DNA of 64,000 nt, from sequence record OP557970.1; one strand, written 5' to 3'. The notes below the pieces were generated by a model, which saw only the letters and a list, made by a program, of their open reading frames with translations, did not search any database and had not been told where the DNA came from. Shown in pieces: positions 4,153 to 10,388 of this stretch (positions are counted from its first letter, which is position 1; every line of letters begins with the position of its first letter). Source of the stretch: Escherichia phage ph0021. Position numbers and translations under genes: made by a program.

Positions 4153-4156
4153 CAAT

Positions 4157-4186
4157 GGGGACCGAAAGGTCCCCATATTTTTATTT
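4157..4186 (+). terminator. rho-independent terminator after gene 54
   Basis: Perfect hairpin ggggaccgaaaggtcccc followed by T-run atatttttattt. Confidence 0.7.
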
Positions 4187-4471
4187 ACGGAATGAAATGA
4201 AAGCAGAAACTGAAGCAACTAAACTGTCTTCAATATAAACTTCAATTTTTACCGGAGCTTCTGACTCAAATTTACCTGTTACTACACCTTGGAAAATACT
4301 TTCAGTCTGTTCTGGCTTTGAAAAATTTTCAGAAGGAAAAATTCCGAACTTTTTATCTGTTCCAAAAATTTTGATAAATTCATCGTAAACTGCTTCATTA
4401 AAAGCATTATCAGCAGGAATAACTCCTTCAACTACAAGTTCTTGACCTAAAAAGCGCAAAGAAGATTTCAT
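4181..4471 (-). CDS. hypothetical protein (alt-downstream small ORF)
   Basis: 96 aa ORF with GAGGA RBS and its own early promoter. Confidence 0.45.
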   Translation of the reverse strand: MKSSLRFLGQELVVEGVIPADNAFNEAVYDEFIKIFGTDKKFGIFPSENFSKPEQTESIFQGVVTGKFESEAPVKIEVYIEDSLVASVSAFISFRK

Positions 4472-4501: not shown

Positions 4502-4532
4502 TACTATAACACAACACGAGGGACTTGTAAAC
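4502..4532 (-). promoter_or_regulatory. T4-type early promoter
   Basis: Minus-strand GTTTAC -35 (4527..4532) and TATAGT-like -10; part of a repeat shared with the alc promoter. Confidence 0.6.
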
Positions 4533-6589
4533 TACATTTTGAACTTTTTAGACATTCCGTTGATGTTAACCAAAGAAGTCAAGATTTGAGAAACTTCATT
4601 TTCCTCTTCTTTTGATTCTTCTACAAGGAATTGATTAAATCCAGCCATTGGACGAACTTCACCAGTTTCCATTAGATGGTCTCCATCATATACTGATTCT
4701 TCTAATTGTTCAGAAGGAGGAACGATTGTACCTTCGATTAGATACTTGTTATAAGCAGTTTCTTTCATAAAGTACGTACTTACTTTATTAATCTTCAGTA
4801 AAATTCCACGTGGTAGAATAACTTCAGCTTCTGACGGAAATCCTGATAAATGACCTGGAACGATAACTTTGATTCGCTCAGCTCCTTTAATTACCATACC
4901 CACGCTAGTTTCTGCATCTTCATTAGCATATGTAGAATGACTACCCATATGCATCAAATCTTCTGCATCAACGGAACCTTCTCCTTCACCAGAAAATACT
5001 GCGCCGGAATCATCTAGAGCCATATAGTTTTTACCATGCTCACCGAAGATATTTGGTTTAAGCGATGTGGATACGAAGTTCTTGAAATAGAACATTTTAT
5101 TTTCAATGTTATGACGCAAAGTTTTAAAGGTAACTTCTTGCCCACGGTAAAGTGTAGTTCCTGGAGGAAGAACTGATCCTTTGGCAAAGGCAGAATCTAA
5201 CGTCTCGATGTGCTTAATAGCTCGTTCCATGTATTCTTCACGGGTAGAATCTGGTTTACCCAAAAGGAACGAGTTCATTTCAACATATGAATCTGCACAA
5301 TAATCTTCAATTACATCAGATTCAGCCTGAGTCAGTCCTTTTGGAGCTACTTCGGTGCTTGCGTATTCATATGCCTGGGCAGCAGATTCATTAATCAATT
5401 TATAAATGCCATTCATGACAAATTGAATAATAGCTGTCTTTTCATCTGGTGTGGTTTTAGAACCTTTAACTAAATCATTAATAATTTTCTTAATAACATC
5501 AAAGCTATTAGAAATATTAATGTCAGCAAGATCGCTTAAAATTTTATCAGTTTTATAATCAAAGAATTCTTTATTCTTTAAATATTCTTGAGAACCTTGA
5601 TATGTTATATCGCTCTGCAACTTGATAGATGGATCACGTAAACGTGCATGGGCTAATGCAATATGATTTCGGAAACTTTCTAGTTCATAATCGTTAGATT
5701 TAAAACGAAAAGCACTTCTCATACCACCGATAGCTCCTTTGCTGAAGTTTGAACCAATCTGAATAACGCCAGAGTTCATTGGTCCTTCTGCTTTATATAC
5801 CGGAACTTTAGATTCAAATTCTTGATATTTCTTAGCAGCGAAGCTATCACCCTGAAGTGAAGCATCAACAGTAGAATATTGAGCTTGTGCTGCTAATCGA
5901 CGACTAATTTTAGTTTTCTGAATAACAGCTTGATCCGTGCGCTTATCATTTTCTAAAGCAATAGAAGCAGCAACAGCAACAGCTTTAGGAACAGCATTAC
6001 CTGTTTTAACGTCTACATAAACATCACCAACCTTTGATTCAACTTTTGTGAATAACTCGGTTGAAATAGGAGGTACACCTGGAATGTCTTCTAAATTGGC
6101 ATTTTTACGGTAAACCATAATATATGCGTACTTTTTATCATAATCCCAGATTTCCTTTAAAAGAACATATCGACCTGCTCCTTTAGTACGTACTAAACGG
6201 TCAGCAATAACTTGCATTTGACGAGCTGCGCCATTTGTTTTACTTTTTAGTACGCGGAATAGGCATGCATCAATTTTATACTGCTTCATTGTTTGAAGAG
6301 CAGTATCAAAAACAGCATTAATGACGCCAATTGGATTTCCACCCAAGTTTTTAAGCTTAACTAATGATAGTTTCTCATTAACACCTATCATTACGATATG
6401 CATCATTTTGTCGCCTGGCTTAACGTTTTTATTCGTATCACCGCCAGAGGTGTATGTACAAAATCTAAATCCAGGAAGCACGCTTTCTTCACCTGCTTGA
6501 ATAGCAAAAATTTGAGGTATTTTATGCTTAGGATTTAAGTTAACAACCGGCGCCGAAGCGCCGTCAAATAATTCTGTAATAAGTTCCAT
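4532..6589 (-). CDS. Alt-like ADP-ribosyltransferase, paralog 2
   Basis: 685 aa; N-terminal ~230 aa and C-terminus (YDGDHLMETGE) closely match the adjacent Alt; ART motifs LYRG, FVSTSL, EAEVILPRG; central region diverged. Confidence 0.8.
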   Translation of the reverse strand: MELITELFDGASAPVVNLNPKHKIPQIFAIQAGEESVLPGFRFCTYTSGGDTNKNVKPGDKMMHIVMIGVNEKLSLVKLKNLGGNPIGVINAVFDTALQTMKQYKIDACLFRVLKSKTNGAARQMQVIADRLVRTKGAGRYVLLKEIWDYDKKYAYIMVYRKNANLEDIPGVPPISTELFTKVESKVGDVYVDVKTGNAVPKAVAVAASIALENDKRTDQAVIQKTKISRRLAAQAQYSTVDASLQGDSFAAKKYQEFESKVPVYKAEGPMNSGVIQIGSNFSKGAIGGMRSAFRFKSNDYELESFRNHIALAHARLRDPSIKLQSDITYQGSQEYLKNKEFFDYKTDKILSDLADINISNSFDVIKKIINDLVKGSKTTPDEKTAIIQFVMNGIYKLINESAAQAYEYASTEVAPKGLTQAESDVIEDYCADSYVEMNSFLLGKPDSTREEYMERAIKHIETLDSAFAKGSVLPPGTTLYRGQEVTFKTLRHNIENKMFYFKNFVSTSLKPNIFGEHGKNYMALDDSGAVFSGEGEGSVDAEDLMHMGSHSTYANEDAETSVGMVIKGAERIKVIVPGHLSGFPSEAEVILPRGILLKINKVSTYFMKETAYNKYLIEGTIVPPSEQLEESVYDGDHLMETGEVRPMAGFNQFLVEESKEEENEVSQILTSLVNINGMSKKFKM

Positions 6590-6592
6590 GAT

Positions 6593-8686
6593 TTATCCTT
6601 GAACGAACTTGTAAGGCATGTTTGTAATATCTATGCAAGACGCAATAATTCCAAGAGATGATTCTACTTTCTGTTTAATATTTGATGAAACAAATGATGC
6701 AAAGTCAACTCTGTCTTCTATTTCAATATCACCTGTCATTGCAACCAATTCACCAGTTTCCATTAAATGGTCTCCATCATAGATTACCGATTCGGTGAGC
6801 TCTTCCGTGGTCATAACTTCAGCTTGAATGAGTTTTGTATTATTAGATGTTGTTCCGTCATTATTAGAAGCATCGGTTATTTTATTAACTTTGACCATCA
6901 ATCCACGCGGTAGAATAACTTCAGCTTCTGTTGCTATTCCGAGACTTCCTGGATATACAACATTAACTTTATGAGCTCCATCAATTGCCCATCCTATTTG
7001 AACTTTAACATATTCAGGATTTTCTTTATACGCTCTTATTTCGTTTGGATTAATAGTTATTCCTTCTTCATTTTTATCAACTGTTAATTCATTGCGAGCT
7101 TCTGGTTCTAAAAGACCAATACCAGCATGTGTGATTCCAAAACGTCCAAAAATGATAGGAGTTAAAGAAGTAGATACAAAATTTCTGAAGTAGAACACTT
7201 TATTTTTAACTAACGCTTCATATATAGGAGCAGTCATACTTTGAGCACGATAAACTGTAATGCCTTCTGGTATACGGTCACCATTTTCAAAAGCTGAATC
7301 TAAGTTATTTATAGCAGATTCAATTTCTTTTTCACTCATTACATCGTATCGTTCTGGATTGTAACGACCTAAAAGAAGATTATTGATGTCAGTATATCCT
7401 GAACCGCAATATTCTCTAATGCCACGCTTTTGTGATGGAGTATATTTAGAACCATCGCGGGCAATAGTAATATCAATCATTGGACCAGCACCAATTCCAG
7501 AAAAACTGTAAATCATTCGTTTGAGGAATTTAGTTTTTGCTGCGTTCCAGGAATTTTTAGTTATTTCTTCCCAGACTTCATCTGGTTGTCCTTTACGATT
7601 TTTATTATGATTAGCAAGCCATTTATCTTTATAATCTTCAAAGAATTGATTTACAGCTGCTGCGTATTTCTCTAAACATTTTATTGAAGTAGTTGGTTCA
7701 TTTTTAATTGCATTAAAAATTACTTCTTTAATTTTTTCTGAAACTTCACCGACTTGACTCATTGGAAAGAATTTATAATCATAGTGAAGTTCATCTGCCG
7801 TTCCTTCAGCAATAATTTTTGCTGCCTTTGTTTTAGAAGCTAATGAATTAATTCCAATTTTCATTTCTTCTGCTTCGGGAATTAAAGGTGCAGTAGCTGG
7901 TTTATTAAAATTGGCTGCTGTAGATTCATACTTCTGGAATAATTCACTTTCAAATCTAGAAGATTCCAATGACTGACTTTGTGCAATTGCTCTACGGGAA
8001 ATTTTAACTTTAACGATTACAGCTTGGTCAGAACGTTTATCATTTTCTTGTGCAATAGATGCTGCAATTGCTTCATTTTTAGTTACTTGAGCTCCAGTAT
8101 CTTTATTGATATAAACATCACCGACCTTCGATTCAACTTTAGTAAAGAGTTCAGTGCTAATTTCTGGAACTCCTGGAATGTCTTCTAATGATACATTTTT
8201 GCGATGTATAAGAATATATGCATACTTTTTATCGTAATCCCAGAGTTCCTTAAGAAGGACGTATCTGCCACCTGAACGACTACGGATAAGTCTATCAGCA
8301 ATAACTTGAATTTGTCGAGCTTGGCCAGCAGTTTTAGACTTAAGAATACGAAGCATGCAGGCATCAATTTTATATTGACGCATCGTTTGCATTGCAACAG
8401 TAAAAACTGAATTGATATAATTAATTGGGCTTGGACCAAGACCTTTTAATTTAGCAATTGAGCCTTTAGCAGTTAATGTAAAAGGAACAATATGCATCAT
8501 TTTATCGCCCATCTTTAAATCGCGATTAGTATCACCTCCAGATGTATAGGTACATAAACGAAAGCCTGGTTGTTCAATTGCATCATCAACATGAACTGAA
8601 AAAATTTGTGGTATTTTCTTCTTTGGATTTAAGTTTGTAATCGGAAGAGTAGTATCTTCGTCAAATAATTCTGTAATAAGTTCCAT
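6593..8686 (-). CDS. alt: Alt ADP-ribosyltransferase (head-packaged, modifies host RNA polymerase)
   Basis: 697 aa starting MELITELFDEDTTLPITNL; ART R-S-E motifs; located between 54 and 30 as T4 alt. Confidence 0.85.
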   Translation of the reverse strand: MELITELFDEDTTLPITNLNPKKKIPQIFSVHVDDAIEQPGFRLCTYTSGGDTNRDLKMGDKMMHIVPFTLTAKGSIAKLKGLGPSPINYINSVFTVAMQTMRQYKIDACMLRILKSKTAGQARQIQVIADRLIRSRSGGRYVLLKELWDYDKKYAYILIHRKNVSLEDIPGVPEISTELFTKVESKVGDVYINKDTGAQVTKNEAIAASIAQENDKRSDQAVIVKVKISRRAIAQSQSLESSRFESELFQKYESTAANFNKPATAPLIPEAEEMKIGINSLASKTKAAKIIAEGTADELHYDYKFFPMSQVGEVSEKIKEVIFNAIKNEPTTSIKCLEKYAAAVNQFFEDYKDKWLANHNKNRKGQPDEVWEEITKNSWNAAKTKFLKRMIYSFSGIGAGPMIDITIARDGSKYTPSQKRGIREYCGSGYTDINNLLLGRYNPERYDVMSEKEIESAINNLDSAFENGDRIPEGITVYRAQSMTAPIYEALVKNKVFYFRNFVSTSLTPIIFGRFGITHAGIGLLEPEARNELTVDKNEEGITINPNEIRAYKENPEYVKVQIGWAIDGAHKVNVVYPGSLGIATEAEVILPRGLMVKVNKITDASNNDGTTSNNTKLIQAEVMTTEELTESVIYDGDHLMETGELVAMTGDIEIEDRVDFASFVSSNIKQKVESSLGIIASCIDITNMPYKFVQG

Positions 8687-8709
8687 GTTATCCTCTCTAG
8701 TGTTTATTC

Positions 8710-8717
8710 TATTTATA
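8710..8717 (-). promoter_or_regulatory. late promoter TATAAATA upstream of alt
   Basis: Reverse complement reads TATAAATA about 25 nt upstream of the alt ATG. Confidence 0.6.
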
Positions 8718-8722
8718 AAATT

Positions 8723-8740
8723 AAAGGCCCGAAGGCCTTT
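8723..8740 (-). terminator. UUCG-loop hairpin, terminator or RNA-stability element
   Basis: aaaggcccgaaggccttt palindrome followed on the transcript by a U-rich tract. Confidence 0.5.
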
Positions 8741-8742
8741 AA

Positions 8743-8928
8743 TTAATAGAGAGCTAAAAGAGTACGATATACTTCAAACTTTGGACCTTTTTCATATGGA
8801 TCAAATCTTTCCGTGAATTCATCATATGCTAGTTTATCTGGGAATTCAAGAATAACCTGCGATACCGCAGTGGAAACATCTCCACCTTCTTTTTGAGCCA
8901 CGACAATTGTTTCTAAGTAAGCTTTCAT
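8743..8928 (-). CDS. hypothetical protein
   Basis: 61 aa ORF, start overlaps ligase stop. Confidence 0.4.
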   Translation of the reverse strand: MKAYLETIVVAQKEGGDVSTAVSQVILEFPDKLAYDEFTERFDPYEKGPKFEVYRTLLALY

Positions 8929-10388
8929 AAACCAGTTACCTCATGAAAATCGCCAAATACATCTTCGAACGTATTAGCTTTAGTTTTATCTTCACGTAAA
9001 CGAATTGCAATTGGAAGAAATAGCTTAACGTAATCAGTACGTCCATCTAATTTTACCCAGCCGTTGCATTCGCACTCTAGAATTTTTCCAATATAATAAT
9101 TTTGGTTTTCCATAATGCGAGTACGATCAAGTTCATGCGATTTTATACCGGCTTTATCTTTTAAGCCTGAACCAGCATTTACTTTAATTTTTCCACACTC
9201 TGATTCAAGAATGAAACCACCTGCTTTAGTAGGGTCTTTACGGTGAGGATAAATTCCTACAATTTTTAAATCAACATCAATTACTTCTTTAAATTTATAA
9301 AGATTTTTTGAACGAGCATTTTCCCATAATCCATCGATATTTTTAAGAATAATACCTTCAAGACCTTGGTCAATATACTTTTTATAAATTACCTTAGCTT
9401 CATCTAGGTTATTTACTACTTGGTTTTCAATTAAAATTACTTTATCATAGCCTGATGTCATTTGTTCTAGTTTAGAAAAACGTACATCATATTTTAAACG
9501 AAATGCTGGAAGACCATATATTTCTACTAATGGAACATAGTCCCAGACCTGAAACTTCATGCATTGTGCTTCTTTTTCAGAAATGGTTCCCTTTAAAGAT
9601 TTATTAGCGATTCCATTAGAAGTAGTACGTGATTCAGCTACTTCGGCGAATTCTTTAGCTTTACTAATTTCAGGATAAGCATCAAAAAGAAAATCTAGGC
9701 CTTCTGGTTCCTTTTTAACTTGCTCATGGTATACCAATTCGCCATCAATTAACACACCTTCTGGATGAATCTGGCGAGCTTCTGCAGTCATTTTGATTAA
9801 CTCTTCCTTGAGAAGATCTAATCCTAGATATTCATTACCAGCTCGTGATAAAAGACGAACATCATCTAATTCATCACCTCTGACTTCAGCAAAACAGCGA
9901 GCTCCATCAGCTTTTAGCTGTGCAAAGGCTGGAAATTTGATATTCTTATTAATGCCTTTTTCGTCATAAGAACTTGCTAGCATTTGAGGTTGTTCAGGAA
10001 TTAAACCTGGCCAAACTTTGTTTGCAATAGATACTGATGCACCGCATTCAAGGTCTCGCATCATCACCCGACGCAAAACTTCAACATCATCTTTTTTACC
10101 GTCAGTAATATATCCAGTTAATTCCTCAATTGCCGCATTTCCAGTCAATTTCCGAGTAGCTAACGTGAATTCAATGAAGTCAAGCATATCGGTAAGAGTC
10201 AACATTCCAAAACTCTGGGTAGTAATACCCGGTTTAGGCCATTTCTTGATATAATACTGTAACCCACGAGAATAAGTCAGACGATATACTCGTTTAAGCA
10301 ATTCATTATCTTTATTCTTTTCAAGAATTGCTTGCTTCTGCTTAGTTGAACCAATAGATGCTATTTCGTTCAGAATTTTAAGAATCAT
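8925..10388 (-). CDS. 30: ATP-dependent DNA ligase gp30
   Basis: 487 aa, N-terminus MILKILNEIASIGSTKQKQAILEKNKDNELLKRVYRLTY matches T4 DNA ligase. Confidence 0.95.
   Translation of the reverse strand: MILKILNEIASIGSTKQKQAILEKNKDNELLKRVYRLTYSRGLQYYIKKWPKPGITTQSFGMLTLTDMLDFIEFTLATRKLTGNAAIEELTGYITDGKKDDVEVLRRVMMRDLECGASVSIANKVWPGLIPEQPQMLASSYDEKGINKNIKFPAFAQLKADGARCFAEVRGDELDDVRLLSRAGNEYLGLDLLKEELIKMTAEARQIHPEGVLIDGELVYHEQVKKEPEGLDFLFDAYPEISKAKEFAEVAESRTTSNGIANKSLKGTISEKEAQCMKFQVWDYVPLVEIYGLPAFRLKYDVRFSKLEQMTSGYDKVILIENQVVNNLDEAKVIYKKYIDQGLEGIILKNIDGLWENARSKNLYKFKEVIDVDLKIVGIYPHRKDPTKAGGFILESECGKIKVNAGSGLKDKAGIKSHELDRTRIMENQNYYIGKILECECNGWVKLDGRTDYVKLFLPIAIRLREDKTKANTFEDVFGDFHEVTGL

Follow-up and report, generated by a model that had tools for sequence, protein, structure and literature searches.

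Two intact tandem Alt ADP-ribosyltransferase genes in Escherichia phage ph0021, a common Tequatrovirus locus that is reduced by deletion in phage T4

Phage T4 is annotated with a single alt gene, which codes for an ADP-ribosyltransferase (ART) and is accompanied by small open reading frames (ORFs). In a stretch of 64,000 nt from Escherichia phage ph0021 (record OP557970.1; this whole stretch is referred to as the window), the alt locus consists of two long minus-strand ORFs, here called alt-up (697 amino acids, aa) and alt-down (685 aa), which lie head-to-tail and are separated by 3 nt. This raises the question of what the second gene is, how it relates to the T4 arrangement, and what its product may do in the infected cell. 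The two genes are intact, full-length Alt-family paralogues, and the two-gene alt locus is a common, already annotated state in Tequatrovirus. By analogy with T4 Alt, and with a probability of about 0.7, alt-down codes for another arginine ADP-ribosyltransferase that is packaged, injected and directed at host targets other than those of alt-up. An earlier reading made without database searches (the sequence-only reading) had reported both ORFs with exactly these lengths and coordinates, and its statement that T4 carries one alt plus small ORFs agrees with the T4 annotation. The two genes were defined by ORF, Pfam, PHROG and alignment evidence:

6593..8686, minus strand: alt-up, an Alt ADP-ribosyltransferase of 697 aa, orthologous to T4 alt by position
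4532..6589, minus strand: alt-down, the second Alt paralogue of 685 aa

Pfam family PF03496 (ADPrib_exo_Tox) matches both proteins (E = 9.6e-38 for alt-up and 4.2e-20 for alt-down), and PHROG 802, "Alt-like RNA polymerase ADP-ribosyltransferase", covers each of them end to end. Both begin with MELITELFD and contain the Y-R, FVSTSL and EAEVILPRG motifs as well as the YDGDHLMETGE segment, a set that had already been recognized in the sequence-only reading and is seen in the sequence and in the alignment. The residues R482, S507-T-S509 and E587-x-E589 of alt-down do not vary among 20 family members and are conserved to at least 90% in 57 representatives, each of which shares 18–40% identity with alt-down; the alignment shows the catalytic motifs of the second ORF to be intact, and no broken catalytic triad was found. 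An AlphaFold model of alt-down (predicted local distance difference test score, pLDDT, of 74) comprises an N-terminal alpha/beta domain, a middle that is helical throughout (approximately residues 250–470), the ART domain and a disordered tail, and a Foldseek search with this model matched the ART domain to Vis, C3, CDTa, iota Ia and VIP2. The domains are located as follows, with the PF26846 assignment taken from precomputed annotation of orthologues:

6806..7555, minus strand: catalytic ART domain of alt-up, aa 378–627, with the YR, STS and EAE motifs (Pfam PF03496, alignment)
4730..5353, minus strand: catalytic ART domain of alt-down, aa 413–620, with R482, S507-T-S509 and E587-A-E589
5354..5878, minus strand: central all-helical region of alt-down, aa 238–412, helical in the model
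5879..6571, minus strand: N-terminal alpha/beta domain of alt-down, aa 7–237, PF26846 (Tevenvirinae_ADPRT), modelled with a pLDDT of 83

Among 1.84 billion proteins, the Alt N-terminal domain was found in 69 representative clusters, always at the N-terminus and only in Alt-like proteins, and 55 of the 57 long proteins that have it also contain an ART domain. Two remote matches to the N-terminal domain, P0183 (485 aa) and P0184 (541 aa), are 25–27% identical to it over approximately 135 aa, and no ART or other Pfam domain was recognizable in the rest of either protein. They may represent fusions of the N-terminal domain to other effectors of an unfamiliar kind, or strongly diverged Alt proteins.

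Overall, alt-up and alt-down are 41% identical (BLASTP, E = 2e-158), but this similarity is distributed unevenly, as is evident from the segment identities counted in alt-down residue numbering:

Residues 1–237: 68% identity
Residues 238–420: 17% identity
Residues 421–625 (catalytic): 36% identity
Residues 632–645 (YDGDHLMETGE): 86% identity
C-terminal tail: 27% identity

Profile comparison of the two paralogue types by hhalign gave homology probabilities of 100% for both the N-terminal and the catalytic domain and 99% for the C-terminal tail, whereas no homology was detectable between the types in the central approximately 170 aa (probability 0.5%), a segment of nearly equal length in both (171 versus 172 aa). 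The sequence-only reading had thus overestimated the likeness of the N-terminal parts, which it described as nearly identical over some 230 aa. Its statement that the centre is essentially unrelated holds for approximately 170–180 aa (about residues 238–420) and not for the approximately 250 aa that it proposed, the catalytic domains being homologous. Within the catalytic domain, the stretch from the STS motif to the ADP-ribosylating toxin turn-turn (ARTT) loop is 13–16% identical and contains indels, and the ARTT loops themselves differ between the paralogues (HLSGFPSEAE in alt-up versus SL-GIATEAE in alt-down; GGSLAPSNEME in T4 Alt). At the DNA level, an exact 29-nt direct repeat (6562–6590 and 8659–8687) comprises the last base upstream and the first 28 nt of both genes, while the N-terminal regions outside this repeat are approximately 72% identical. 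The repeat suggests gene conversion or a strong constraint on propeptide and translation start.

Comparison with T4 accounts for the single alt gene of that phage. Residues 1–246 of alt-up match T4 Alt (682 aa) at all but one position and the tail has 96% identity, but the middle region and the ART domain share only 34 and 65% identity, respectively. Relative to T4 alt, the synonymous divergence (dS) of alt-up amounts to 0.13 and 0.09 in the two ends and to approximately 1.2–1.3 in the body, which reads as the pattern of a replaced cassette. The alt-down protein is 41% identical to T4 Alt overall, and its N-terminal 237-aa segment 68% identical, compared to 100% for that of alt-up. The gene order in T4 is alt, alt.-1, alt.-2, alt.-3, and a note in the T4 RefSeq record traces alt.-1 and alt.-2 to an old duplication of the initial portion of alt. 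At the DNA level, alt.-1/alt.-2 correspond to nt 1–348 of alt-down (95.7% identity, one indel) joined to nt 2039 through the end of the gene, and the 1-nt indel divides the reading frame. In keeping with this origin, the PHROG families of alt.-1 and alt.-2 score 138 and 131 bits on alt-down versus 78 and 70 bits on alt-up. The junction in T4 sits at the 9-bp sequence CTAAAAAGT, which is present at both breakpoint positions in the intact gene:

6242..6250, minus strand: CTAAAAAGT copy 1, alt-down nt 340–348, left breakpoint of the T4-type deletion
4543..4551, minus strand: CTAAAAAGT copy 2, alt-down nt 2039–2047, right breakpoint of the T4-type deletion

Since the T4 stump joins nt 348 to nt 2039 at this repeat, the T4 locus arose by a 1,699-bp microhomology deletion within alt-down. 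T4 is therefore the derived state, and the window keeps the whole gene.

The complete locus is widespread. Its 4.9 kb are covered to at least 80% in 356 phage records at approximately 95–98% identity, many of which are annotated with two ADP-ribosyltransferases, and at least 401 phage records contain the alt-down body, among them T2, RB5, RB14 and RB51. An 89-nt probe spanning the T4-type deletion junction was fully matched in 91 records, T4 among them. The alt-up body of the window type was found at 90% identity or more in approximately 318 records, including RB14, RB51 and T2, and many other records contain the T4-type body (approximately 46% identity). The alternative alt-up bodies and the two states of alt-down occur in all four combinations:

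Window-type alt-up body with intact alt-down: this window
T4-type alt-up body with intact alt-down: SHFML-11
T4-type alt-up body with deleted alt-down: T4
Window-type alt-up body with deleted alt-down: T4_ev151

Across phages, the locus thus exists with one gene, one gene plus a stump, two genes or three genes. The pair is annotated as alt_1/alt_2 in the RefSeq genome of UFV-AREG1 (NC_031030). In the literature, T4 alt.-1/alt.-2 have been described as paralogous duplications of alt, with a full-length duplicate in phage 44RR (Nolan, 2006; PMC1524935), and a genome paper of 2026 reported "two paralogous Alt-like proteins" of 43.29% identity in 6phi13 and SHFML-11 and suggested that their targets have diverged (PMC13600099). 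The literature searched yielded no functional study of the second paralogue. The arrangement had appeared notable from the sequence; T4 is strictly speaking not identical, yet the records, the RefSeq annotation, the T4 duplication note and both publications show that it was known. One record stands out for its host: an alt-down body 100% identical to that of the window (window positions 4600–6240) occurs in Pseudomonas phage PsgM02F (OR584013.1, locus L005), recorded from Pseudomonas coronafaciens pv. garcae on coffee leaves. Its sequence is that of an ordinary Escherichia-type Tequatrovirus, which makes this host look odd. The record starts within the alt-up gene, which is annotated there as a truncated misc_feature.

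Where it is kept, alt-down evolves under constraint. Compared to the gene of UFV-AREG1, the nonsynonymous divergence (dN) is 0.010 and dS is 0.171, giving a dN/dS ratio of 0.059, which decreases to 0.034 in the ART domain. Together with a 90%-identity cluster of 772 alt-down sequences and the intact catalytic residues, this indicates that the gene is maintained by selection. An older history is apparent from Escherichia phage fDHCT2 (OR427838.1, locus L003, 5263–11523), whose flanking ligase and gp54 share 64 and 63% identity with their counterparts in the window and which carries three tandem alt genes coding for 694, 681 and 707 aa. The three N-terminal domains of fDHCT2 are 67–88% identical to each other and 41–45% identical to those of the window. 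The ligase-proximal gene alt_3 has a body of the alt-up type (middle 67%, ART domain 95% identical; dS is 0.47 in the ART domain and saturated in N-terminus and tail), and the gp54-proximal gene alt_1 has one of the alt-down type (middle 45%, ART domain 58% identical). The body of the middle gene, alt_2, is unlike those of alt-up, alt-down and T4 Alt (12–21% identity in the middle and 35–42% in the ART domain) and represents a fourth body type. Between the window and fDHCT2, gene order is kept; the N-terminal domains group by genome and the bodies by paralogue type. This places the duplication before the origin of these genera, with later swapping of bodies or ART segments. A single chimeric alt gene is present in a Logan contig of a T4-like phage (SRR24155011, locus L004, 5001–7055, protein P0005), which combines an alt-up N-terminus (94% identity) with an alt-down body (98–100% identity), the product expected of unequal crossover in the N-terminal region common to the paralogues. 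Proteins P0003 and P0006 contain other conversion tracts.

The ends of both proteins are informative with respect to packaging. T4 Alt is present in approximately 40 copies in the prohead core and the mature head and is ejected into the host (PMC9026906). The protease gp21 cleaves it after ITE-6 and LTE-619 as determined by mass spectrometry, so that 63 C-terminal residues are lost and a mature protein of 68.2 kDa results (PMC5694885); the N-terminal cut is also annotated in record X15811. Motifs of the gp21 type are found at both ends of both window proteins, with ITE-6 at the start and an L-x-E approximately 55–65 aa before the C-terminus, and LTE-632 of alt-up and LEE-631 of alt-down occupy the same alignment position. 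The following propeptides are predicted:

8669..8686, minus strand: alt-up N-terminal propeptide MELITE, with a gp21 site at ITE-6 by likeness to T4
6572..6589, minus strand: alt-down N-terminal propeptide MELITE, inside the 29-nt stretch common to both gene starts
6596..6790, minus strand: predicted C-terminal propeptide of alt-up, aa 633–697, after LTE-632, which aligns to T4 LTE-619; it holds YDGDHLMETGE
4535..4696, minus strand: predicted C-terminal propeptide of alt-down, aa 632–685, after LEE-631; it holds YDGDHLMETGE and the terminal KF

The 20 family members all have the P1 glutamates E6 and E631, which are conserved to at least 90% in the 57 representatives, a degree of conservation reached by few residues besides the catalytic ones. 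Because the L-x-E site precedes it, YDGDHLMETGE would lie at the start of the predicted C-terminal propeptide and outside the mature enzyme. The proposal of the sequence-only reading that the conserved ends fit a shared route into the capsid is borne out insofar as these ends coincide with the mapped gp21 sites of T4 Alt (PMC5694885). By analogy, both alt-up and alt-down would be packaged and processed as T4 Alt is.

The surroundings of the two genes are consistent with expression as one unit. The sequence-only reading had placed them between gene 54 and gene 30, which are the outer neighbours; the immediate ones are alt.-3 and alt.1. The locus thus lies behind a late-promoter match, with gene 30/alt.1 on one side and alt.-3/gene 54 on the other, and genes 54 and 48 lie on the plus strand and converge on the alt unit from its downstream side. 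In the order of transcription, the relevant elements are:

8925–10388: DNA ligase gene 30, beyond alt.1
8743–8928: alt.1, Pfam Phage_blade, immediate upstream neighbour of alt-up
8723..8740, minus strand: GC-rich, terminator-like hairpin after alt.1 (aaaggcc-ttcg-ggccttt followed by a T run), read from the sequence
8710..8717, minus strand: predicted late promoter TATAAATA, matching the T4 late consensus, 24 nt before the alt-up ATG and directly after the hairpin
Approximately 8692–8695, minus strand: Shine-Dalgarno sequence GAGG of alt-up
4503..4531, minus strand: T4-early-type promoter TTTACA-17-TATAGT for alt.-3; it directly follows the alt-down stop codon and marks the end of the alt unit
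4181–4471, minus strand: alt.-3, 96 aa, DUF5498, immediate downstream neighbour of alt-down

T4 has the hairpin, TATAAATA and the alt start in the identical order, and a conserved terminator upstream of alt has been reported (Nolan, 2006; PMC1524935); judged by its sequence and position, the hairpin appears to shield the alt operon from early transcription arriving from upstream. The two genes meet at TAA-atc-ATG, and the Shine-Dalgarno sequence of alt-down (AGGA, 7 nt before its ATG) lies inside the final codons of alt-up. The intergenic DNA holds no separate promoter for alt-down, and the two genes probably form a single late transcription unit that starts from the TATAAATA at 8710–8717. The claim that the upstream copy alone has a TATAAATA is correct for the intergenic DNA; a second perfect copy lies within alt-up at 7306–7313 (minus strand), 717 nt before the alt-down ATG, where it spans the codons A-I-N-N of an AINNLDSAF motif, and is also present in UFV-AREG1. 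This internal copy could promote late transcription of alt-down or reflect chance within the coding sequence. Downstream, alt.-3 is followed by a bidirectional terminator at 4155–4176 that is common to gene 54, and its stop codon adjoins the same hairpin region as in T4. Mutations that extend the C-terminus of alt.-3 in T4 escape the CmdTAC defence system (PMC11618068).

Taken together, these features are best explained if the two alt genes form one late operon and each product consists of the six-residue MELITE propeptide, an Alt-specific alpha/beta domain, a helical middle of approximately 170 aa, an ART domain of the C3/VIP2 type with the R-S-ExE active site, and a C-terminal propeptide of 54–65 aa. 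Like T4 Alt, both products would enter the prohead core, where the gp21 protease would trim both ends, and would be injected with the DNA to mono-ADP-ribosylate arginines of host proteins by using NAD+, as expected from the E-x-E type of active site. Most likely the paralogues modify different sets of host proteins, because their middle parts are unrelated and both the STS-to-ARTT stretch and the ARTT loop differ. Several observations weigh against this explanation. The literature searched contained no experimental evidence of virion presence, activity or a target for the second Alt protein. The TATAAATA at 8710–8717 is a consensus match only, with seven matches in the window, a number not above chance. 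Phages with the T4-type loss are viable and common (91 records), so that the second gene must be dispensable at least on some hosts. Moreover, as the N-terminal domain is almost exclusively fused to ART domains (55 of 57), its presumed role in delivery lacks support from architectural diversity.

Among the alternatives, it is unlikely that alt-down is an active but unpackaged enzyme that acts late in the producing cell or exists only as a precursor. It would fit the distal place of the gene in the operon, the absence of reports of its product in virions from the literature searched, and the range of roles considered for the Alt propeptides, namely targeting, tethering or control of activity (PMC5694885). 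However, alt-down has kept MELITE within a gene start that is identical in both genes over 29 nt, the L-x-E site with a homologous C-terminal propeptide (99% by hhalign), and the Alt-specific N-terminal domain at 68% identity, and such shared ends weigh against an unpackaged enzyme because the same features mark T4 Alt, which is known to be packaged and processed. That both enzymes have the same targets and the duplication merely raises the injected dose would fit their common arginine-type E-x-E motif and overall architecture, but a dose duplicate is expected to remain similar throughout, and the central 170 aa have no detectable homology, the STS-to-ARTT segment is 13–16% identical with indels, the ARTT-loop residues differ (HLSGFPSEAE versus SL-GIATEAE), and the divergence is ancient and kept across genera; this makes a pure dose effect very improbable. 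Hardly any weight is given to the view that alt-down is a redundant or decaying copy, functionless in itself, that is becoming a pseudogene as in T4. T4 and 90 other records do lack approximately 1.7 kb of the gene and retain a frameshifted stump, and T4 Alt is non-essential (PMC9026906). Decay is nevertheless contradicted by the low dN/dS (0.059 for the gene and 0.034 for its catalytic domain), by the retention of all catalytic and cleavage residues, and by the ratio of at least 401 records with the intact gene to 91 with the deletion. In addition, the alt-down type persists as a separate lineage in fDHCT2, the phage with flanking core genes approximately 64% identical, and the locus collapsed to a single gene in the Logan contig retained the alt-down and not the alt-up body.

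Beyond a second packaged and injected enzyme, a broader reading is put forward tentatively and falls somewhat short of even odds. The alt locus could be a modular array of injected effectors, in which at least four ancient catalytic bodies have been recombined, even across genera, on a genome-specific scaffold for delivery and processing that comprises the N-terminal domain and both propeptides and stays alike among the copies of one phage, and alt-down would be an injected enzyme with its own targets, possibly with a function in counter-defence. If this is true, work based on T4 would miss alt-down entirely, since the gene is deleted in that phage.

As a discovery, an arrangement known from the annotation of hundreds of genomes and from publications since 2006 carries little weight. 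The consequence lies rather in a caveat for the use of T4 as a model: of the two predicted capsid-delivered ADP-ribosyltransferases found in most of its relatives, T4 has only one, and the catalytic body of this Alt differs from the commoner allele, so that the known targets (RNA polymerase alpha and others) may not be those of the enzymes injected by most T-even phages. The second enzyme, conserved and intact, is a reasonable subject for focused biochemical study.

Of the known systems, the annotated alt_1/alt_2 pairs (UFV-AREG1, Sf23, MLF4, T2 and RB51, and those of 6phi13 and SHFML-11) are closest, with the same genes in the same order at 95–98% nucleotide identity; there is no substantive difference, and the window is one more instance. 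T4 alt.-1/alt.-2 share with alt-down its first 348 nt but have a split frame and lack 1,699 bp, whereas the gene is whole here. T4 Alt resembles alt-up in position and in its late-promoter and terminator context, and both window proteins in architecture, the R-S-ExE residues and the ITE-6 and L-x-E motifs; it differs in that the alt-up body is another allele and alt-down is only 41% identical. The catalytic bodies of both window proteins diverge from that of T4 Alt, and its known targets are not simply transferable to them. C3bot, Vis, iota Ia, CDTa and VIP2 have the same catalytic fold and R-S-ExE active site, but these toxins are secreted or delivered through pores, lack the Alt N-terminal domain and gp21-cleaved propeptides, and are 13–20% identical. 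The Mod proteins of T4 are small early products of genes located elsewhere in the genome. ModA and ModB, ADP-ribosyltransferases from the same group of phages, fall into the Alt/VIP2 clade, but Alt, unlike its ModA and ModB paralogues, is injected from the head together with the DNA (PMC5512222).

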